A stretch of DNA of 64,000 nt from an uncultured Porphyromonadaceae bacterium (GTDB lineage Bacteria; Bacteroidota; Bacteroidia; Bacteroidales; Muribaculaceae). Position 1 is the stretch's first letter, and every line of letters starts with the position of its first letter. Position numbers and translations under genes: made by a program. The notes under the pieces are model-generated. The model was not told where the DNA came from. It ran no database searches and saw only the letters and a program-made list of their open reading frames with translations. The stretch is from the NCBI GenBank assembly GCA_947175545.1, contig CAMWNI010000005.1, forward strand, positions 4,323-68,322, in the 5' to 3' direction. Positions 27,104 through 60,620 of the stretch are shown piece by piece.

Positions 27104-27397
27104 TCAGTTGTGCTGGAGATGCGTGAGAAGATCGTCGGCCTGGTGGAGGCCCGAGCCGCGCCACCGGACTTCGCCGTTGCGGAACACGATGAGGGTAGGA
27201 ACGGACTGAATCCGATACTTTTGCGCGAGTTCTTCGTTGCGGTCAACGTCAATCTTGATAATATTGGCGCTGTCACCAACCTTTGTCTTTAATTGCTCAA
27301 GAATGGGGGACTGCATTTTGCAAGGCCCACACCAGGTTGCGTAGAAGTCAACGAGAGTCGGTTTGTCACTGTTTATGAGTTTTTCAAAATCTTCCAT
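27104..27397 (-). CDS. trxA: Thioredoxin
   Basis: 97 aa with the WCGPC active site. Confidence 0.9.
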   Translation of the reverse strand: MEDFEKLINSDKPTLVDFYATWCGPCKMQSPILEQLKTKVGDSANIIKIDVDRNEELAQKYRIQSVPTLIVFRNGEVRWRGSGLHQADDLLTHLQHN

Positions 27398-27432: not shown

Positions 27433-27473
27433 AAAAAGAAAACAAGCGAAACCCGGTTGAGGTTCCGCCTGTT
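27433..27473 (-). terminator. Intrinsic terminator after the M60-like gene
   Basis: Minus strand: AACAGGCGGAACC...GGGTTTCGCTTGTT imperfect stem followed by TTCTTTTT. Confidence 0.55.
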
Positions 27474-27495
27474 TTTGTTAAATAGTCTTAATTGG

Positions 27496-30400
27496 TCAGC
27501 GGACAAGGGTTTTCTTGCCGTTGATAATGTATATGCCGGGGGAACTGATGCGGCTGATGCGTAAGCCCTGGAGGTTGTAGATAACGGTCTCGCCCTTGGT
27601 GCTTTCGATTTCGTCAATCATCGTTGGCGTGGACGGATTGTTTTTGATTGCGAGCAGGGCCTGATAGTGAGGCAGAAGGGCATCGTAAGAGGCATCGAAG
27701 TTCGAATGGTCGGCGCGCGAGGCGTTGATAACGACTTCCGAGTTGTGGATCTGGCGGATTGCTGCTTCCAGTGTCTCGGCGTTGGCGTCAGGCCATGATT
27801 CTGTGTCCGGTTCCGATTCAACGTCATATTCGCAGAGAACAAATTCGCTGACGGCAAAGTAGTCGTGGCCGTTGCTGGTGCCTCTGTTGGTGCTATTGGC
27901 GTTTTGCCGGCTCTTTGAAACGGTAAAGCGCACAAACTGAGTTCCGGCCGGAACGCTGAAGGTTTCGGACTCGAAGGATGTGTTGTGGGTTAGCGGCAGC
28001 AGATTGTCAAGTTCGCGGGCAACAGTCCAGGTTTCGCCGTCGGCCGAGTATTCGATTATTGCTTCAGCGGGCGCGAATGTGTTACTGTTGTGGTTGCGGG
28101 TCGTGTAGGTCAGGAGCATGTCGGTTTCGGTAGCCGTTGTCGGTTCCTGAAGACGAATCTGGATGTGGTGGTCGTTGCCGTCAGTAGTGTTGCTGTTGTA
28201 AGTGCTGTGGAAGAACGTGTTCGGATTGTTGTCAAACAGGACTTCCCATGACGACAGATGGTCACTTGTGTTCTGACCGGTATATTCGGCATTTGTGCTG
28301 TACTGGTCGGCTGACACTGACAGAGGAATCACGTTCTCGGTGTTTTCACCCAGTTCTGCGGCGAGGGCGCGGGTCTGTGCGATGAGTTCGCGCAGACGCT
28401 CTATGTTGCGGTTCATTGCATTGAGCAGAGTGGTGTAGGCTTCCGTCAGGCTGTTGATTGCCTCGGTGCGCTCAGGGTTGGTTGCGCCGGGGTTTGCGAT
28501 AGTCAGTTTTGCGGCTTCGATGTTGTTATAGACGTCCATCAACATTTCCGGCTCGACGAAGGTGAATTTTTCGACCGGCGTAGCGCTTTCAGCAACGTTG
28601 AAGGCTTTCGAGAGGCGAAGTTCCGAGATTACGAAGTAGTTATGACCTGCCTTAGAGTCATCTGGATTCGCGTGATTGACCATGAAGCGGATATATTTCG
28701 CATCTTCCGTCAGTGAGCAGGGGTCAAGAGCCTGGTCGGTCGAGAATGCGGTTGTCAGTCCGGACGTGATATTGGCGACATCGGTCCATGTTTCGCCGTC
28801 GGGGCTGCACGCAAGTGTTACGTCTCTTGGAGAGAATACCTGAGCGTTAGCCTTCTGGTAGCGGGTGCGGTAGCCGAGAACGAACTGATTGAAGAAACCG
28901 CAGTTTTCGGGAATCCGGATGCTGATGTAGTGGTTCAGTCCGTCAGTGGTTCCTTCGTCGGAGTAGTCGCTGTGGAAAATTGTCTGGGCATCATCGTCGA
29001 ACAAGTAGCTCCATGTCTCGTCTGTGAAACCGTCGCCCCACTGGGTAACCTTACAGGGTGCGTTGGTGAAGAGGTCGTCGGGGGTGATGTCGACGGGTTC
29101 GGTACGGATTGTGGACTCCACGGTGCCGGCCTCCGGAAGCAGGGCTTCGGCCTTCGCAATGATGTCGTTGAGGGCGAAAATCAGCGATTTTGATTCGGAA
29201 TCGTCGGCAAGTTCAAGTGTCCAGAGCGAAGCGGAAGCATTTGGCTCCCAGCGGACAATGCGGCCGTTGTTGTCAGCATGGATGGCATTATGGGCTGCGT
29301 CCGAGTTGGCAACGACAGCAACGAACTTCAGAGACAGGGGCTGGATTGTCCACGACTGTTCCGGCTCGGAAGTCAGCGGCATAGCGCTGTTGTCAGCATC
29401 TGCGAGTTTGAGATACTTATGGTTGCTGACGTTCTGAATGAAGAATGAGCCGTTTTCGTCGGCCGGAATGAAGTACCACTGCTGCAATTCATCGTTTTTG
29501 TTGACATTCTCAGCAACTGCAACCGGCACGGCATTATTGTTGTTGTCGCCGGTTCTCACACCGTAGATGCCTTTCAGCTGGTTGGCGGTGAAGGAGTAGA
29601 TATTGTTCGGGACAATGTTGATGATGTTTTCGGCCGACGGAGTAATCGTTTCAACCGCGAGAACTTCCGGATTCAGCAGGTCGTAGAGTTCAGTGGCGTT
29701 TTCCTCAGTGATTTCGTTGTTGTCGAACTTGGCCTTGACTTCATCGCGGGCGGCGATAAGAGCGTCGGCCACTTCGGGTTTCAGGTAGCCAACCTTGGTT
29801 GAAGTGGGGTCGACATTGGACAGCAGGTCCTCGGCGCGTTCAAGCAGGTCGGCGATAATGGTCAGCCGTGATTCAAGGCTGCCCTCGCGCACTGCGTCGC
29901 GCACGGGAACCTCCACGTTGTTGCTCTGGATAACGCTGAAGGAAGCTTTGCCTTCGGCGATTTTCTTGGCTGTTTCGGCCGATACTTCAAAAGTCTTTTC
30001 GTTGGAAAAGCCAATCAGTTTGCCTTCCTCGTCGTAGATCAGGAAGCCGACGCCACCGGTTCCGTCGCCTCCGACGGTCACAGCTGTTCCGCTGACGGAG
30101 AATTCGTATTCGCCGGAAACCGCGTCACGGCCTTCGATGAAGTCATTCAGACCGCCCATTTCGCCGGCATCAGCGGGACGACACCAGTCGGCATAAGCCT
30201 GTTTGGTTGAGCCGACACGGTCATCAATGAATATGACCGCATTATTCTTTTCCCATCCGTTTTCTTCCGCCATTTGCTTGATGTCGGCTTTCCATTCGGC
30301 AATGTCCTCTGCCGAGAGGTAAGAGGTGTAGGACGTGTAGTCGCCGATGTAGAAGCCGTCCTGTTCGACAAAGAAGCCCCAGGCTTCAAAGAAGTCGGTC

Positions 30401-33400
30401 AGATCCTCGCCGGCGGCGATGCAACACATCTTGGCGAAGTGCAGCAGGTCGTCTTTCGCGTTAAGATGTTCAGTGCTGTTCTTTTGAAGCGGATTTTCGC
30501 GTAGCAGTTCGTAGAGGCGGGGATAGAACTTTTTGTTGTTTCCGGCAGCATGGTAGTAGAGCCAGAGCTGGAACCACATGCGGGTTGTTCCCCACGTGTC
30601 ATGCTGGTGGAAGTTATAGCCGCGGTTGAAGAAGTCGCGCTGGACCGATGGGAGTGACGCACGCGATGAGTTCACGCCGCGATAGAAGAGGGCTACGTTT
30701 GAGAACACGTTATTACTTTCTTCGGAGGTGCCGGCGATTTTCATCGGGCCTTGGTTCAGGTGGCCGAATTCGTGGGCGGGACCCCAGAGGTCCATCGTCG
30801 GGAACTGCATGATGATGGAGCGGAGGGTTGATATGTTGTAGGTTGAGCGATACCACGTTGCGCTCATGAAACCTTCGGTGCTTGAAATGCCCATCAGGCG
30901 ATTGTTGAAGTAGAGAGAATAGTCACTGGGAGCAACTTCATCGCCTTCGAGCGTGTCATACCAGTCGCGGCCGGCGGCCTTTTCGGCGAGGATGACGTCG
31001 TCGCTCATGAGACCCATTATGAGCATTTCGGCGACAAACATTTCGTCCCAAGCCCTCAGAGTGGCAATCAGGTCGAAGTTTCCGGCGTTATATTCGTCGC
31101 GTGTCAGCAGATTCTTCAGACAGGGATTTGAGTTGCCCTCAACGTCGAAGAAGTGCATATAGAGCAGGCAGTACTTCGAGATTATGCTGAAGCGGGGATG
31201 ACGCGCGCGTTCGCGGTAGTAGAACCAGTCCTCATTTGTGTCAGGAGTGTAGAGCGCGTCGCCTTCAGCGTTGAAGAAGCCGTTGATTGAACCGCCTTCG
31301 ACGTGAATTTTGATGTCGTCATAGTCCGTCAGCGGATGTAGGCGGGTGCGGCCGGAGTTGGTGTTCACGACGTAGTAAACAACCATTTCGGCGCAGTCTT
31401 CATTACATTGAATGATGTTCAGACCCTCCGTAAGTTCCGTTCCGTCGTTGACAACGTTGAGTTTGTTGACGCTTGATTCGAAGGTTCGCGGCGCGATATA
31501 GAGTGTGGAGCCTTCAGGGGCGCCTTTTTCGACCATGACGTATAGGGTCGTGCCGTTGTCAGAGAGGATGCCCGTCGGGTTGTTGAAGTTGGTGTAGGCC
31601 TGGATGCAGGTCATTCCGGTAATGCCGTCGCAGTTTGAGTAAGGTTCGACCATCTGGACGCGGAATTTCCGGGCATGTTCGCTGTCCCATTGAATTTCGG
31701 CGTTGACGGGGTCGGTTTCGGACCAGTCGCCGGTGCGGACTTTCATGACCATCTGCCGGAGAGTGGCCGGTAGCGACTGATAGCGTGCGTCAGCCTCAAT
31801 GTCCTCGGCGCTCATGGCGCTGTATGTGGAGTTGAGTTCGGTGCATGTCTTGTCCGTAAACATTGCGGCGAGTGTTGCCTCTATGTTGTCGGTTTTGACA
31901 TATTCCCATGTCTGACGCTGAGCTTCGATTTCCTCGTCGGTGAAGTTGTTGACCATGGTGAGGGTCCACTGGGTCGGTTTTGCGCTGCTTTCCCATCCGA
32001 CAATGTTATGGTTGCCGTCTTCGTGGGCATAGCCGTAGTTTTTTGCCTCGCCGGTGCTGTTTTTTACGCTAAGAGGCTGTAAAACGACGCCGTTGGCGGC
32101 AATTTCGACGTACATGACGGTTTTGGCCTCGTTCGGTTTGGAGGTATTGACAACTTTCCATTGCGTACTTCTGCCCATTGAACTCTGAAGGACGGAGCCG
32201 GTGTCGAAGTTGCGGAGCATAAATCCGGTCCCGTCGGCGTTCGACTCGACAAGCCAGAGCTGACGCAGGCTATTGTCGTCAGTCTCTTCGCCGATGGCGG
32301 AGTTATTGTTGTTGTGCGAGAGGGAGCGTCCGGTATAGTTTGCATTTGTCAGGCGATAGAGTTTGCCGTCAATGACTTCGGTCAGAGGGGAGTCGGGCCA
32401 GGTCGCTTTTACGGCTTCGATTGCAGCGTCGTCATAATCTTCGATACGTTGCACGGCCCATTTCGAGGCATTTGCGTCACGGTCCCAGGAGTAGAGGCGA
32501 TGCTGGTCGTCCTCATGGGCGAAATTACGCGAAGAGGCCGCGACGCCTTTGGGGCCGATTGCGAACAAGTCCGGCTCCTCGGTCTGAGGTTCAATGGTCA
32601 GCAGCGTTGATGATTCGCAGGGGTATGGCGTGCAGGTCCAGTAGGCCTGTGTTCGCATCGGACTGTTGAGATAGAGGCCGGAAATGAGGTTGCGGAGAAA
32701 GAATCCGGTCCCGTCAGCGTTTGATTCGGTTATCCAGAGCTGAGACTCGTCAGCGGTGTCAGGCGTAATGCATGTGACGTTGCCTTCGCCGTTGACCGCA
32801 TGGAAAGCTCCGCCGCGAAGATTGTTGATAAACTGATAGACGCGGTTGGCGCGGAGCGCGCGCGGATACCAGGCGTCCTGATAGCTTTCGAGGGTTGCAG
32901 CGTCCATGTCAACCAGGGTCAAGGTCCATCGTGAGGCCGAACCCTCAGAGGCGGGTCCCCAGCATTGGAGTTGAGTGCCGGCTGAGCCGTTAGCATGGGC
33001 ATAACCTGCCTGAAGCGGATGCTCATCCGGATTGAAGCCTACAGCCTGAATGGTGTTGTTGTCGTTGAAAATGAACGACATTGAATCTTCATCCGGGCTG
33101 GCGGTTAACGTAGTGGTCCAGCGTGCGCTCGTCTGAATTGGCGATGTCATGTAGTAGCCGTTGGCGAGTCCGCGAAGATAATAGGCAGTCCCGTCAGCGT
33201 TTGAGTGGGCCACCCAAAGCTGGTTCGGGTTTGTTTCGTCAGGGTTCTGAATCGTGATGATTCCGGGAGATTCAGGTGCTTGAATAGCCAGTTGGTTATG
33301 GTGGTTTGTGATTTGGTATACACCACCGTCAACAAGGGTTATCGCCTCCGTGGTCATGGCTGCCGAAGCCACGAGCAGGGATGAAAAAAACAGTTTAAGG

Positions 33401-33405
33401 TGCAT
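27496..33405 (-). CDS. Giant secreted M60-like (enhancin-type) zinc metallopeptidase with four ricin-B-like lectin modules, two F5/8-type-C (CBM32-like) modules and a T9SS C-terminal sorting domain
   Basis: Start chosen at MHLKLFFSSLLVASAAM (signal peptide; 1,969 aa). HEFGH lies at 30760-30774. QLW..ESNADGTGF repeats at ~33200/32720/32240. W..LFD....T.FHS occurs twice. C-terminal end is VIYNLQGLRISRISSPGIYIINGKKTLVR. Confidence 0.85.
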   Translation of the reverse strand: MHLKLFFSSLLVASAAMTTEAITLVDGGVYQITNHHNQLAIQAPESPGIITIQNPDETNPNQLWVAHSNADGTAYYLRGLANGYYMTSPIQTSARWTTTLTASPDEDSMSFIFNDNNTIQAVGFNPDEHPLQAGYAHANGSAGTQLQCWGPASEGSASRWTLTLVDMDAATLESYQDAWYPRALRANRVYQFINNLRGGAFHAVNGEGNVTCITPDTADESQLWITESNADGTGFFLRNLISGLYLNSPMRTQAYWTCTPYPCESSTLLTIEPQTEEPDLFAIGPKGVAASSRNFAHEDDQHRLYSWDRDANASKWAVQRIEDYDDAAIEAVKATWPDSPLTEVIDGKLYRLTNANYTGRSLSHNNNNSAIGEETDDNSLRQLWLVESNADGTGFMLRNFDTGSVLQSSMGRSTQWKVVNTSKPNEAKTVMYVEIAANGVVLQPLSVKNSTGEAKNYGYAHEDGNHNIVGWESSAKPTQWTLTMVNNFTDEEIEAQRQTWEYVKTDNIEATLAAMFTDKTCTELNSTYSAMSAEDIEADARYQSLPATLRQMVMKVRTGDWSETDPVNAEIQWDSEHARKFRVQMVEPYSNCDGITGMTCIQAYTNFNNPTGILSDNGTTLYVMVEKGAPEGSTLYIAPRTFESSVNKLNVVNDGTELTEGLNIIQCNEDCAEMVVYYVVNTNSGRTRLHPLTDYDDIKIHVEGGSINGFFNAEGDALYTPDTNEDWFYYRERARHPRFSIISKYCLLYMHFFDVEGNSNPCLKNLLTRDEYNAGNFDLIATLRAWDEMFVAEMLIMGLMSDDVILAEKAAGRDWYDTLEGDEVAPSDYSLYFNNRLMGISSTEGFMSATWYRSTYNISTLRSIIMQFPTMDLWGPAHEFGHLNQGPMKIAGTSEESNNVFSNVALFYRGVNSSRASLPSVQRDFFNRGYNFHQHDTWGTTRMWFQLWLYYHAAGNNKKFYPRLYELLRENPLQKNSTEHLNAKDDLLHFAKMCCIAAGEDLTDFFEAWGFFVEQDGFYIGDYTSYTSYLSAEDIAEWKADIKQMAEENGWEKNNAVIFIDDRVGSTKQAYADWCRPADAGEMGGLNDFIEGRDAVSGEYEFSVSGTAVTVGGDGTGGVGFLIYDEEGKLIGFSNEKTFEVSAETAKKIAEGKASFSVIQSNNVEVPVRDAVREGSLESRLTIIADLLERAEDLLSNVDPTSTKVGYLKPEVADALIAARDEVKAKFDNNEITEENATELYDLLNPEVLAVETITPSAENIINIVPNNIYSFTANQLKGIYGVRTGDNNNNAVPVAVAENVNKNDELQQWYFIPADENGSFFIQNVSNHKYLKLADADNSAMPLTSEPEQSWTIQPLSLKFVAVVANSDAAHNAIHADNNGRIVRWEPNASASLWTLELADDSESKSLIFALNDIIAKAEALLPEAGTVESTIRTEPVDITPDDLFTNAPCKVTQWGDGFTDETWSYLFDDDAQTIFHSDYSDEGTTDGLNHYISIRIPENCGFFNQFVLGYRTRYQKANAQVFSPRDVTLACSPDGETWTDVANITSGLTTAFSTDQALDPCSLTEDAKYIRFMVNHANPDDSKAGHNYFVISELRLSKAFNVAESATPVEKFTFVEPEMLMDVYNNIEAAKLTIANPGATNPERTEAINSLTEAYTTLLNAMNRNIERLRELIAQTRALAAELGENTENVIPLSVSADQYSTNAEYTGQNTSDHLSSWEVLFDNNPNTFFHSTYNSNTTDGNDHHIQIRLQEPTTATETDMLLTYTTRNHNSNTFAPAEAIIEYSADGETWTVARELDNLLPLTHNTSFESETFSVPAGTQFVRFTVSKSRQNANSTNRGTSNGHDYFAVSEFVLCEYDVESEPDTESWPDANAETLEAAIRQIHNSEVVINASRADHSNFDASYDALLPHYQALLAIKNNPSTPTMIDEIESTKGETVIYNLQGLRISRISSPGIYIINGKKTLVR

Positions 33406-37764: not shown

Positions 37765-38466
37765 TCAAATTATTCGGAACATGTAGCCGAGGGTACATTC
37801 AATTGACATTCCGCGCGAGGCTCCGAAGACGTCACGGCGGCTTGAGGGGAACACATTGGCCAGTCCATAGTAGAAACGGCCTTCGAGCAGAATCGAGTGT
37901 TTTCGGCGCAGGCGCATCTCAACTCCGAGGCCGCCTGCAATTCCATAGTCGAATTTGCGTCCAGGCTCCATGGCAAGTTGCTCGTAGCGGTGGTTGCGCG
38001 GAAAGTTGCTGACTGATTCAATGTTGCGATAGTTGAAGTTGGCGGTTGTTTTGTCGCCAACCATATAGCCTATTTCCGGGCCGAGATTGATGAAGAATCT
38101 CCATTTTTCCGACCCGAAGAAAATCTGGGTCATTATGGGTAACTGGAGATATGAAAACTGTCTTTTATAATCAAGGTTGGAGTCGCTGTTGAATTTTTCG
38201 GCCCAACCGCGCTGGGTGAAATTCAGTTCGGCGACGAGTCCGAAATGGTTTTCCTCGGTGTAGCGCAGGCAGAGTCCGGCAGTCATGCCGGGCGTGAACT
38301 TCTGGCGCACGGTCGGCGACCATGACATTTCCGAGAGCGTCGCCCCGCCTTTAAAGCCGATGGCGAGGTCAGGCGTATAATAGCGCTGGGCTGCCACGCC
38401 GAAGGGGGCGAGACAGCCAAGGACGAGCAGCGTCAGAGCGCACAGGCGGTTTGTCAGAGTTTTCAC
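37765..38466 (-). CDS. PorT-family / OMP_b-brl_2-type outer-membrane beta-barrel protein
   Basis: Signal peptide, alternating amphipathic strands, and a C-terminal aromatic residue pattern (TLGYMFRII). The start overlaps the upstream stop by 4 nt. Confidence 0.6.
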   Translation of the reverse strand: MKTLTNRLCALTLLVLGCLAPFGVAAQRYYTPDLAIGFKGGATLSEMSWSPTVRQKFTPGMTAGLCLRYTEENHFGLVAELNFTQRGWAEKFNSDSNLDYKRQFSYLQLPIMTQIFFGSEKWRFFINLGPEIGYMVGDKTTANFNYRNIESVSNFPRNHRYEQLAMEPGRKFDYGIAGGLGVEMRLRRKHSILLEGRFYYGLANVFPSSRRDVFGASRGMSIECTLGYMFRII

Positions 38467-58779: not shown

Positions 58780-59385
58780 TCAGGATTGTTGCGATTTGAG
58801 GTATTCTTCACAACAGAGCTTTAGTTCGGAATACCAGTCGGCACCGAAACGCTCGGTCAGCGGTCCTTCGAGAAACTGATAGAGGCGGATGCCCTCGCGG
58901 CGTCCTTTGGCGCGCGCCGGACGGCAGATGTTCCAGCGGTGATAGTTGACGGCGGTGAATGAGTCATATTCCGTCAGCCGCACCGGATAGAGGGCGCATG
59001 AAATCGGTTTGCGCCATTGCGTTTCGCCACGGCGATAGGCTCCGTCAAGGGCGCAAAGACATACCCCTCCGGGACCATAGCAGGTAAAGGCACAGTTTCG
59101 CCCATCAAGAATTGTCGTTACCAGGTCTCCTTCTTCGTCGACGTAAGCAACGCCGTTTCGCTTTACTTCCTCGACAGCCCGGGGCAGCATTTCTTTCTCA
59201 ATAGCGGGTAGAGCGCGACGAATTTCGCGACATTCGGCATCGGTTACGGGTGCGCCGGCGTCACCTTCGATGCAACATTCGCCTTTGCAGGCGTCGAGGT
59301 CACAGCAAAAAAATTCTTCAGCCAGGTCGAGACTGACCAGGGTGTTCTGTATCTGAAACATGATTTGTTCTTCTTCGATTGTCAT
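58780..59385 (-). CDS. DUF3109-family Cys-rich protein
   Basis: FCCDLDACKGECCIEGDAGAP motif. Alternative start at 59361 (MFQIQNTL). The ATG at 59385 overlaps the upstream stop (ATGA). Confidence 0.7.
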   Translation of the reverse strand: MTIEEEQIMFQIQNTLVSLDLAEEFFCCDLDACKGECCIEGDAGAPVTDAECREIRRALPAIEKEMLPRAVEEVKRNGVAYVDEEGDLVTTILDGRNCAFTCYGPGGVCLCALDGAYRRGETQWRKPISCALYPVRLTEYDSFTAVNYHRWNICRPARAKGRREGIRLYQFLEGPLTERFGADWYSELKLCCEEYLKSQQS

Positions 59386-60620
59386 TTTATGATTGTTGCA
59401 CTGAGAAGGCGCTCAAAGCGTGCGCCCGGCTCCCGCTGATAGAGGAGCAGCAGATATTCATTGTCGGTTTCGTAGTAGTCTCCCTCAATCGGGTTGCGCT
59501 CTGATTTGTCAGCCGGGCTGACCACATACTGATAATTATAGAGGCCCTGTTTGAGCAGCAGCGTTTTGACGTAGGCGCCGAGCTGCTCGTTATAGACCAT
59601 TCTGGAGTCAGCGTCAAGGCGGCGGTTGGTCAGGTCGCCTTCGAGATAGACATCGCCATGGCTTAGGCGGGGCATTTCGAGTTGGAAATGAGTGACGAGA
59701 TAGTCTGCCTCAATGTCCGGGTCGTCGCTGAACAGCAGATTTGGGAAAAAACGGCCTGCCTGTCCTTCGTCGTAGATGTAGCGGTCATAGGCTCTTGGCT
59801 TGTCGGTCAGCAGTTTGACGTGAAAGTAAGGTTCAATGAGCATGTATTCCTCAATGCCCATGCCCGGATAGCGCACATTTGTTGATTCAAAGCGTCGGTA
59901 TTCATTCCCCGCGGGGAAAATAAGTTCTTTCTGATGGGCATAGACTGTGCGCCCGGGAAGGATTCGCTGCGGTTTGTCAAGGCTGTGTGTAAGCGAGCCG
60001 TTGCGGACAATCACGAGCCGAAGGTCGTTCAGCGGGTCGGCAATTCGCGCACCTTCAAGGTCGGCTTCGATTTCAAGCTGTTGATGGCGTGAATTATAGT
60101 CAACGTCTGTACTTGAGGTGATTTTAGCGCTCAACGGCACTTTTTCTTCGCTGACCATGAAGCGGGCTTGTAACAGAACCTCGTCAGGGTCCGAGTCGTC
60201 GAAAACCTGAATCAGATAGTTGCCGGAGAGAAGCGGCTGAATGTCTTCGTTTGGCAGAGTCAGGTCGTAGTGGACGTAATGGACAAGAGTCCGCTGCGAA
60301 AGCGCGTAGGAATATATTTCGCCAATGTTGAATCCATTGACAAACTCGGTTTCGGAAATCTGAGTCGGATTCCAGTCTGAGTCGCAATGAATCAGGCGGT
60401 AACGGAGATAGCGGTTGTCTTCGGCCAGTTCGTCGAAACTAAGCCTGACGAAACTGCCTCCGGCCCCGAGGGTTAAAATCGGGGGCAGAAGCGGATTTTC
60501 GGCATTGCTGATGCGAAGCGACTTGAAATCGGGGTCGAAAACTCCGGTGCGGGTGTCAGTTGTTGCAAAAGCAACAATCGCCACTGTCAACAGCAGCAGT
60601 AAGTCAATAGCCCTCTTCAT
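59382..60620 (-). CDS. DUF5103-family protein (T9SS plug-protein-like family, from recollection)
   Basis: Signal peptide, then VFDPDFKSLRI...LSFDEL......YRLIHCDSDWNP, which is typical of DUF5103. Confidence 0.55.
   Translation of the reverse strand: MKRAIDLLLLLTVAIVAFATTDTRTGVFDPDFKSLRISNAENPLLPPILTLGAGGSFVRLSFDELAEDNRYLRYRLIHCDSDWNPTQISETEFVNGFNIGEIYSYALSQRTLVHYVHYDLTLPNEDIQPLLSGNYLIQVFDDSDPDEVLLQARFMVSEEKVPLSAKITSSTDVDYNSRHQQLEIEADLEGARIADPLNDLRLVIVRNGSLTHSLDKPQRILPGRTVYAHQKELIFPAGNEYRRFESTNVRYPGMGIEEYMLIEPYFHVKLLTDKPRAYDRYIYDEGQAGRFFPNLLFSDDPDIEADYLVTHFQLEMPRLSHGDVYLEGDLTNRRLDADSRMVYNEQLGAYVKTLLLKQGLYNYQYVVSPADKSERNPIEGDYYETDNEYLLLLYQREPGARFERLLSATIIK

Follow-up and report, generated by a model that had tools for sequence, protein, structure and literature searches.

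Gene organization and flanking region

Within the 64,000-nt stretch of DNA from a gut Muribaculaceae bacterium analyzed here (the window), positions 27496-33405 of the minus strand hold an open reading frame (ORF) which is open throughout and encodes a protein of 1,969 aa, referred to below as the M60 protein. Its ATG at position 33405 sits 116 nt past the stop codon of an upstream fcl-like gene, and a longer, TTG-started ORF (to 33702) overlaps the fcl-like gene in a different frame. A Sec signal peptide of the SPI type, MHLKLFFSSLLVASAAMTTEA, which carries no lipobox Cys, can be read from the sequence at 33346-33405 (minus strand, start codon included), and homologs of the M60 protein begin with similar signal peptides. 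With the ORF open and both the ATG and the Sec signal present, the gene model put forward in an earlier sequence-only reading of this DNA, a 1,969-aa protein starting with a signal peptide from the Met at 33405, holds, and all of the motif placements given in that reading were confirmed.

Downstream, a terminator-like hairpin (27439-27475, minus strand), whose 16-bp stem precedes a T run, lies 21 nt 3' of the stop codon. Inspection by eye of the 120 nt upstream of the gene revealed no promoter box of the Bacteroidetes type (TAnnTTTG), and a sigma-70 promoter scan is ill-suited to this phylum. The neighboring genes have housekeeping functions (gmd, fcl, M3 peptidase, thioredoxin, and NlpC/P60); the M60 gene lies neither in a polysaccharide utilization locus (PUL) nor beside genes for mucin glycans.

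M60 catalytic core

The core (30226-31848, minus strand; aa 520-1060) consists of a short helical lead-in, an N-terminal beta-sandwich resembling that of BT4244, and the catalytic domain. In the whole-protein Pfam search, Peptidase_M60 (PF13402) reached 62.3 bits (cut-off 25.8; E = 7e-17), and phmmer aligned the core with BT4244 (5KD5/5KD2) across aa 578-1143 with an E-value of 2e-36. The AF2 model of the core (pLDDT 94.6) matched 5KD2 in Foldseek (E = 3e-37, target TM 0.80-0.82). The C-terminal beta-sandwich, Peptidase_M60_C (PF18630; 29896-30123, minus strand; aa ~1095-1170; 38.3 bits), aligns with the C-domain of BT4244, and in the whole-protein search the same family scored 34.4 bits against a cut-off of 26.2 (E = 3e-8). 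It is followed by a helical spacer (29641-29895, minus strand; aa ~1171-1255) which AF2 builds as helices (model residues 652-733) and which matches no family.

The zinc and GalNAc-site motif, read from the sequence at 30718-30786 (minus strand), is W874-x3-H878-E879-x2-H882, with E895 as the third ligand; HEFGH lies at 30760-30774 and E895/E896 at 30715-30729. Spelled out, the arrangement W874-GPA-H878-E879-FG-H882 with E895 12 residues on fits the gluzincin pattern HEXXHX(8,28)E. The WxxxHExxH motif of M60 enzymes has been defined previously (PMC13580078), and the definition of the M60 motif through the gluzincin pattern and HEXXH likewise comes from earlier work (PMC3267712). The W, H, E, H, and E of the motif are invariant across 42 homologs, the spacing from HExxH to the Glu is identical in the M60 protein and BT4244, and the active-site region is the best-conserved stretch between the two. 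The profile, the sequence match to BT4244, and the predicted fold all uphold the previously proposed M60-like core with HEFGH and a downstream Glu, and the core is a BT4244-like Peptidase_M60 with an intact catalytic motif. Its predicted activity would be O-glycan-dependent cleavage of peptide bonds.

Lectin and carbohydrate-binding modules

RicinB_lectin_2 (PF14200) matches the protein in 4 stretches (whole-protein score 69.6 bits, E = 3.7e-19). Module 1 (32866-33342, minus strand; aa 22-180) scored 35.6 bits (E = 1.5e-8) and is directly followed by module 2 (32386-32865, minus strand; aa 181-340; 21.4 bits, singly below the gathering score; 32% identical to module 1) and module 3 (31906-32385, minus strand; aa 341-500; 24.6 bits; 26% identical to module 1), all in a 160-aa register. 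Module 4 (29179-29640, minus strand; aa 1256-1409; 31.9 bits, E = 2.2e-7) is divergent, with 17% identity to module 1. Copies 1 and 4 thus pass the gathering score of PF14200 singly, with copies 2 and 3 at 21-25 bits. The recurring segment QLWxxxSNADGTxF lies at 33181-33222, 32701-32742, and 32221-32262, spaced exactly 480 nt (160 aa) apart, and the divergent fourth copy has QQW at 29476-29484. A profile built from the 4 modules matches ricin-B lectins in the PDB (9S11, E = 4.5e-7; MOA 2IHO, E = 4.5e-6). The array of 3 tandem ~160-aa ricin-type modules with a divergent fourth, as originally described, is thus borne out by 4 PF14200 matches, the 480-nt period, and the PDB matches; a recent tandem duplication was ruled out, the copies sharing merely 17-32% identity. 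By profile, the modules are R-type lectins, for which a beta-trefoil fold and sugar binding are predicted.

Two F5/8-C (CBM32-like) modules follow. The first (28606-29088, minus strand; aa ~1440-1600) comes after a helical linker and reaches only 18 bits with PF00754; the second (27808-28350, minus strand; aa 1686-1866) scores 42.6 bits, is modeled by AF2 with a pLDDT of 93.3, and is flanked by helical hairpins at aa 1640-1685 and 1876-1921. With 31% identity between them (E = 4e-24) and the signature W..LFD....T.FHS at 28969-29013 and 28204-28248, the 2 modules resemble each other, and the assignment of both as F5/8-C modules could be retained. The top Foldseek match of module 2 is the CBM32 BT3015C in complex with galactose (7BLG, E = 5e-9), and further matches include CBM32-5 of CpGH89 with Tn antigen, so that the fold is closest to Gal/GalNAc-binding CBM32s. 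The lectin modules may share this glycan specificity.

C-terminal tail and the T9SS

The protein ends in a short T9SS C-terminal signal (27499-27621, minus strand; aa 1929-1969, 41 aa) with motifs B (IYNLQGLR), D (GIYI), and E (KKTLVR). PorU cleavage is predicted at PT|MI, which places Ile at +2 and Met, instead of the usual small residue, at +1. In the AF2 model of this region (aa = model residue + 1639), a coil stretch (aa 1922-1940; pLDDT below 50 at aa 1931-1936) leads into a small beta-sheet with strands at model residues 302-303, 309-310, 318-322, and 325-329 and a tail pLDDT of 85-89. The type-A-like C-terminal domain (CTD) previously placed at ~27496-27700 was correct as to the presence of a T9SS-type tail but not as to its type, the remainder of that interval being a helical hairpin and coil linker. 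A canonical type-A CTD was ruled out: neither TIGR04183 (NCBIfam) nor PF18962 (Pfam) matches the M60 protein at E ≤ 1, and its tail is absent from the 19 six-frame canonical-CTD matches obtained in the genome at E ≤ 0.1. The profile searches proposed in the sequence-only reading as a check thus supported the M60 core, with no CTD model matching the tail; taken at face value, the failed CTD search would have led to rejection of a correct idea, because the standard profiles miss the short-CTD class.

The tail of the M60 protein belongs to this class. In Prevotella intermedia, mass spectrometry has demonstrated both cleavage and glycosylation for T9SS cargo with short CTDs (Ye et al. 2025, Open Biol 15:240335; PMC11969387). 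The 41-aa tail falls within their published length of 40-55 aa; like them, it has Ile at +2, Y..G with a basic residue in motif B, GxY-I in motif D, basic residues in motif E, and equally short spacers, and its predicted structure is likewise a coil linker leading into a small sheet of roughly three strands. The spacers, which we count at ~11 and ~6 aa with approximate motif limits, fall at the upper end of the 6-11 and 1-6 aa given in the paper. The Muribaculaceae tail differs in its Met at +1, and its cleavage and glycosylation are predicted only. By analogy, cleavage would occur at T1928|M1929 and would be followed by surface anchoring. An HMM of the tail family recovered 46 C-termini in the genome, 45 of which belong to ORFs with a signal peptide, compared with 10 canonical CTD matches; in hhalign, 32 of the short tails aligned colinearly with these 10 canonical CTDs, with probabilities of 87-91% and an E-value near 1e-6. 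The GxN subgroup of short CTDs is likewise present in this genome, and the tail is kept in nearly all of 119 homologs of the M60 protein.

The genome encodes a full T9SS, with SprA (2621 bits), PorU (844 bits), PorV (478 bits), the plug protein (362 bits), and GldK (515 bits), the latter within a PorP-K-L-M-N operon; the core genes whose presence had been raised as a point to be checked, namely, SprA, PorK-N, PorU, and PorV, were all found. In the window, the DUF5103 ORF (59382-60620) matches the T9SS plug protein model NF052315 with the 362 bits given above, in agreement with its suggested T9SS association. By contrast, the ORF at 37765-38466 had been assigned to the PorT family, but yielded merely a generic OMP_b-brl_2 match and a sub-threshold TDE1717 match, and its PorT identity was rejected. 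In a sample of 200 Bacteroidales genomes with even representation of families, 14 had matches to tail profile A2. All 14 encode SprA, yet SprA is present in 195 of the 200. In one family, considered as a possible mixture of genomes with and without a T9SS but represented by just 8 genomes of one genus, tails were found in 8/8.

Relatives and known M60 systems

Hundreds of relatives are encoded in Muribaculaceae, Alloprevotella, and Prevotella metagenome-assembled genomes (MAGs), many of them already named "M60 family metallopeptidase"; the named taxa with the clade are Muribaculaceae, Prevotella, Alloprevotella, and Paraprevotella, and its source MAGs come from the mammalian gut. The genome analyzed here has 4 M60 paralogs with 3 export styles. 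The architecture, which had looked like that of a specialized host-glycoprotein degrader or adhesin-protease, is not exceptional; it represents the upper end of a large, annotated clade of the Muribaculaceae/Prevotella type, whose members bear 1 to 4 N-terminal lectin modules. Combinations of M60 with ricin-type and with CBM32 modules were tabulated as early as 2012, in a survey that listed 78 M60 proteins with CBM32 and 4 with Ricin B lectin (Nakjang et al. 2012, PMC3267712); it predates the Muribaculaceae genomes and includes neither ricin arrays of 1-4 copies nor a T9SS tail.

BT4244 is the top match by both sequence and fold, with about 25-30% identity, a common three-part core (N-terminal beta-sandwich, catalytic domain, and C-terminal beta-sandwich), and WxxxHExxH...E with identical spacing. 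BT4244 is a surface lipoprotein that carries BACON and CBM32 modules, whereas the M60 protein has over twice its length and combines an SPI-type signal and a short T9SS CTD with 4 ricin-type modules, 2 CBM32-like modules, and helical spacers. ZmpB and ZmpC of Clostridium perfringens, AM0627 of Akkermansia, and BcM60 of Bacteroides caccae share the M60 fold (E = 1e-18 to 1e-22 in Foldseek and 1e-14 to 1e-20 in phmmer) and, in the case of ZmpB, also the joining of CBM32 modules to it, but are more distant (14-23% identity) and differ in having CBM51, FIVAR, and sortase or lipoprotein anchoring; none carries a T9SS signal. We found no paper linking M60 with the T9SS or describing a Muribaculaceae M60 enzyme.

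Proposed function and alternatives

We consider it likely that the protein is a T9SS-exported, BT4244-like M60 O-glycopeptidase, probably surface-anchored, which acts on mucin-type glycoproteins. The Sec signal peptide would direct the protein to the periplasm, where the short CTD would be recognized by PorV and the SprA translocon. The PorU sortase would then cut the coil linker at the predicted T1928|M1929 site and attach the C-terminus thus formed to a surface glycolipid, so that the enzyme would end up at the cell surface or on vesicles. There, the 4 beta-trefoil and 2 CBM32-like modules, with helical hairpins between them, may bind Gal/GalNAc-type glycans at high avidity, and the zinc site (W874, H878, E879, H882, E895) would cut the backbone beside O-GalNAc-bearing Ser/Thr of mucin-type glycoproteins. 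A role as a degrader of host glycoproteins is plausible, with host mucin as the presumed substrate.

The same enzyme with the same export could act on something other than host mucin, such as glycoproteins from the diet or from plants, surface glycoproteins of fungi or bacteria, or secretory IgA, which we judge to be rather unlikely. M60 enzymes have by now been found both in host niches and in the environment (PMC13580078), BT4244 also cleaves the IgA1 hinge (PMC13355702), many Gal-type glycans are bound by ricin-type and CBM32 modules, and the M60 gene lacks a mucin-PUL context. However, the nearest characterized enzymes (BT4244, AM0627, and the BcM60s) are mucin-type O-glycopeptidases, the clade occurs in MAGs of the mammalian gut, and the 4 paralogs of this genome fit a host-glycan lifestyle.

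Two further alternatives, each of which we regard as very improbable, concern catalysis and export. The protein could serve mainly as a multivalent surface adhesin, its M60 domain being inactive or confined to binding; the 6 lectin-type modules, together with the long helical spacers, account for over half of the chain, and HEXXH has been lost in some eukaryotic M60-like proteins (PMC3267712), but here all 5 motif residues are present and invariant in the homologs, within the region most conserved relative to BT4244. Equally, the tail could be something other than a T9SS signal, with the protein being periplasmic or surface-bound by another route, as would fit the failure of TIGR04183 and PF18962 and the near-ubiquity of SprA in the sampled Bacteroidales, owing to which its co-occurrence with the tail does not discriminate. 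Against this, the tail aligns colinearly with canonical CTDs, its family occupies the extreme C-terminus of 46 ORFs, nearly all with a signal peptide, and the same class is processed in P. intermedia. Moreover, Muribaculaceae, Prevotella, Alloprevotella, and Paraprevotella, which carry the clade, are regarded as T9SS-bearing lineages.

The M60 protein is well built but ordinary, being a member of a known enzyme family with an export tail of an already published type; no concept is altered by it, and what had been published is carried over to a further family. Muribaculaceae dominate the mouse gut and are believed to comprise some bacteria that forage on mucin, and, to our knowledge, their mucin-backbone proteases are uncharacterized. 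As a more tentative idea, which we hold to be possible rather than probable, the clade as a whole might constitute a T9SS-anchored mucin "grappling" protease of the Muribaculaceae/Prevotella type, in which the number of beta-trefoil (1-4) and CBM32 modules tunes avidity to the mucin glycans of the host and acts as a determinant of host range or niche. Because the short tail is missed by standard CTD models, T9SS cargo of Muribaculaceae is under-annotated several-fold (in this genome, 46 short tails versus 10 canonical matches). Muribaculaceae bear putative BT4244-like O-glycopeptidases with T9SS tails, and hence predicted T9SS export, instead of the lipoprotein form, and, if true, this would be the first example of a T9SS route for cleavage of the mucin backbone by an M60 O-glycopeptidase.

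Gene model and genomic setting

The minus-strand ORF at 27496-33405 is open throughout and encodes 1,969 aa when read from the ATG at 33405; the N-terminus of this product is a typical Sec signal peptide that has no lipobox. An alternative TTG start, reading up to 33702, runs into the 3' part of the upstream GDP-fucose synthase-like gene in another frame, which makes ATG 33405 the preferable choice. A terminator-like hairpin with a 16-bp stem (27439-27475, minus strand) lies 3' of the stop codon and separates the M60 gene from a thioredoxin-family gene. The latter encodes 97 aa (27104-27397, minus strand) and is located between the M60 and NlpC/P60 genes. The neighbours of the M60 gene are housekeeping genes (gmd, fcl and those for an M3 peptidase, thioredoxin, NlpC/P60, a U32 peptidase and polA), with no PUL among them.

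A BT4244-like peptidase core with lectin modules

Pfam searches of the entire protein and ten pieces of it identified Peptidase_M60 (62 bits) and Peptidase_M60_C (34-38 bits). The top phmmer match among PDB sequences is the O-glycopeptidase BT4244 (5KD5, E 2e-36, aa 578-1143), followed by the Bacteroides caccae BcM60 enzymes and AM0627. When aa 520-1260 were modelled by AF2 from an alignment with 41 homologs (pLDDT 94.6), the best Foldseek match of the model was again BT4244 (E 3e-37, target TM 0.80), with AM0627, ZmpB/C/A and IMPa ranking next. Thus, the M60-like core proposed in the sequence-only reading is borne out by profile, sequence and fold. The HEFGH motif, read from sequence, is encoded at 30760-30774 (minus strand). 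The WxxxHExxH residues and the Glu acting as third zinc ligand (W874, H878, E879, H882, E895), the family-defining features in recent papers (PMC3267712, PMC13580078), do not vary across 42 homologs and are spaced as in BT4244. BT4244 is described as the founding M60 O-glycopeptidase, with Tn, core 1 and 3-sialyl core 1 as its substrates (PMC13355702).

RicinB_lectin_2 was matched 4 times. The 3 N-terminal ricin modules keep a strict 160-aa register, with the QLW...SNADGT segment at 33181, 32701 and 32221 (spacing of exactly 480 nt), but are only 26-32% identical, and the fourth module has 17% identity, indicating an old array. Combined into one profile, the 4 modules matched R-type lectins of known structure in the PDB, among them 9S11, MOA and CNL. 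F5_F8_type_C was matched twice, strongly in module 2 and below threshold in module 1, the 2 modules being 31% identical (E 4e-24); their W..LFD....T.FHS segments read at 28969-29013 and 28204-28248 (minus strand). All motif positions in the sequence-only reading proved exact or off by a few bases.

The AF2 model of aa 1640-1969 (pLDDT 93.3) shows a jelly roll between two helical hairpins, after which come a low-confidence coil and then a small beta-sheet. The closest Foldseek matches of the jelly roll are Gal/GalNAc-binding CBM32 modules, namely BT3015C (7BLG, E 5e-9), CpGH84C and CpGH89 CBM32-5 with Tn antigen. Helical hairpins at aa 1171-1255, 1410-1440, 1640-1685 and 1876-1921 (approximately 29641-29895, 29086-29178, 28351-28488 and 27643-27780) flank each C-terminal lectin module on both sides; they gave only weak DUF1542 and Laminin_II matches and may serve as rigid stalk elements.

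The tail is a short T9SS C-terminal signal

A type-A-like T9SS C-terminal domain (CTD) had been proposed at 27496-27700. No CTD model in NCBIfam or Pfam matched the protein at E<=1, and a six-frame search of the genome with TIGR04183, a canonical CTD model, marked 19 places, with this ORF absent from them. Such failure had been named in advance as refuting the signal, yet it is misleading for a short CTD. The last approximately 45 residues follow the pattern SSIxEI ... IYDLQGRRV ... GIYIINGKKxLVK, and an HMM of this pattern found 46 ORF C-termini (E<1e-4) in the 2.23-Mb genome, for example at C13:47453-47584, C1:215290-215418 and C4:9962-10099. Signal peptides are present on 45 of these 46 ORFs, the remaining one being truncated by a contig end. 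With few exceptions, the 119 homologs of the protein terminate in this pattern as well. In the canonical CTDs of the genome, these motifs recur in an identical order, separated by approximately 20 and approximately 10 additional residues, and profile-profile alignment links the short tails to the canonical CTDs with a probability of 87-91%.

The motifs are the same as those of the short CTDs of Prevotella intermedia, which span 40-55 aa and form one three-stranded sheet; 5 of their cleavage sites have been determined, and cargo with either short or long CTDs is C-terminally glycosylated (PMC11969387). [quoted passage not shown] The GxN subgroup is paralleled here by a 'GIN' subgroup comprising 7 of the 46 short CTDs (KGINIINGKK...; …KGINIINGKKVLVK). 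The tail is a member of the published short CTD class, and homology places the predicted cleavage site at T1928|M1929, which would give a CTD of 41 aa (27499-27621). Hence, the proposed export function stands, whereas the type-A-like class and the larger extent do not.

The genome encodes the T9SS machinery

SprA (2621 bits), PorU (844 bits), PorV (478 bits) and GldK/PorK (515 bits) were all identified, the latter within a PorP-K-L-M-N operon (C1:190676-196943) in which PorP, PorL, PorM and PorN were assigned by order, size and sequence reading; the T9SS gene set called for in the sequence-only reading is thus in place. A second PorU-like ORF of 1160 aa (C18:13248-16355, minus strand) reaches 325 bits with the sortase model of the T9SS, for which the cut-off is 420 bits. 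Within the window, the DUF5103 ORF (59382-60620, minus strand), previously regarded as T9SS-associated, encodes the plug protein of the T9SS (NF052315 equivalog, 362 bits; PF17116 T9SS_plug_1st). The putative PorT-family barrel (37765-38466, minus strand) matches only a generic outer membrane beta-barrel model (PF13568 OMP_b-brl_2) and, below threshold, a TDE1717-family model, and PorT-specific evidence was not found. In an even sample of 200 Bacteroidales genomes, 14 have the tail and all of these encode SprA, although the contrast is small given that 195 of the 200 encode SprA.

Relatives and paralogs

The names given to its nearest proteins and loci mark the organism as a Muribaculaceae bacterium. 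A word-index search scored 532 relatives, many titled 'M60 family metallopeptidase [Muribaculaceae bacterium]', and a genome scan confirmed 355 loci distributed over Muribaculaceae (Sangeribacter, Paramuribaculum, Duncaniella), Alloprevotella, Prevotella, Paraprevotella and Prevotellamassilia. The nearest loci (68-71% identity) are in SRP199465 MAGs and in 'Mgla' MAGs, which we take to be from bank vole. Tandem M60 genes of the same clade, 60-68% identical to the query core, occur in close relatives (L005/L006 on CAMWSN010000010.1 and L008/L009 on JAAVCG010000006.1), which suggests local duplication and divergence. The 119 best homologs carry one (n = 77), two (24), three (11) or four (2) N-terminal 160-aa modules, so that our protein falls among the larger members of a series graded by copy number and is not unique. 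M60 pairings with CBM32 and with ricin modules have been on record since 2012 (PMC3267712).

Counting the present protein, the genome encodes 4 M60 paralogs, and the zinc motif is present in each. Two of them end in short CTDs; of the remaining ones, one bears a lipoprotein-type signal and the other a plain signal peptide without a CTD. The 3 paralogs other than the present protein, each with WxxxHExxH (C11:9425-12115, C1:453780-456803 and C1:122250-126557), comprise the lipoprotein-type one (LTGC), the one with the plain signal peptide, and one that combines a short CTD with a single ricin module.

Probable function and implications

The protein is most likely a T9SS-exported O-glycopeptidase, probably anchored at the cell surface. 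The 6 lectin-type modules on their helical spacers would tether the enzyme to mucin-type glycoproteins rich in Gal/GalNAc, and its BT4244-like site would meanwhile cleave beside O-GalNAc-bearing Ser/Thr. The analysis establishes the domains, catalytic motif, fold, class of tail and T9SS genes, whereas the activity, glycan specificity, cleavage site, anchoring and natural substrate are inferred.

The natural substrate could instead be a glycoprotein other than mucin, which we regard as unlikely but not negligible. That the array makes the protein an adhesin carrying an idle protease is highly improbable, the zinc site being invariant among the homologs. A tail without relation to T9SS, with the failed CTD profile searches on one side and the P. 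intermedia motifs on the other, appears equally far-fetched.

A literature search found no paper on T9SS-delivered M60 enzymes or on those of Muribaculaceae; accordingly, the protein is so far uncharacterised, its kinds being already known. It represents a candidate mucinase from a dominant mouse-gut family, and one 2.2-Mb genome exports this same enzyme family in 3 styles. It is also a reminder that standard annotation overlooks short CTDs: with 46 short tails versus 10 TIGR04183 matches above the cut-off, most T9SS cargo of this genome would escape it.
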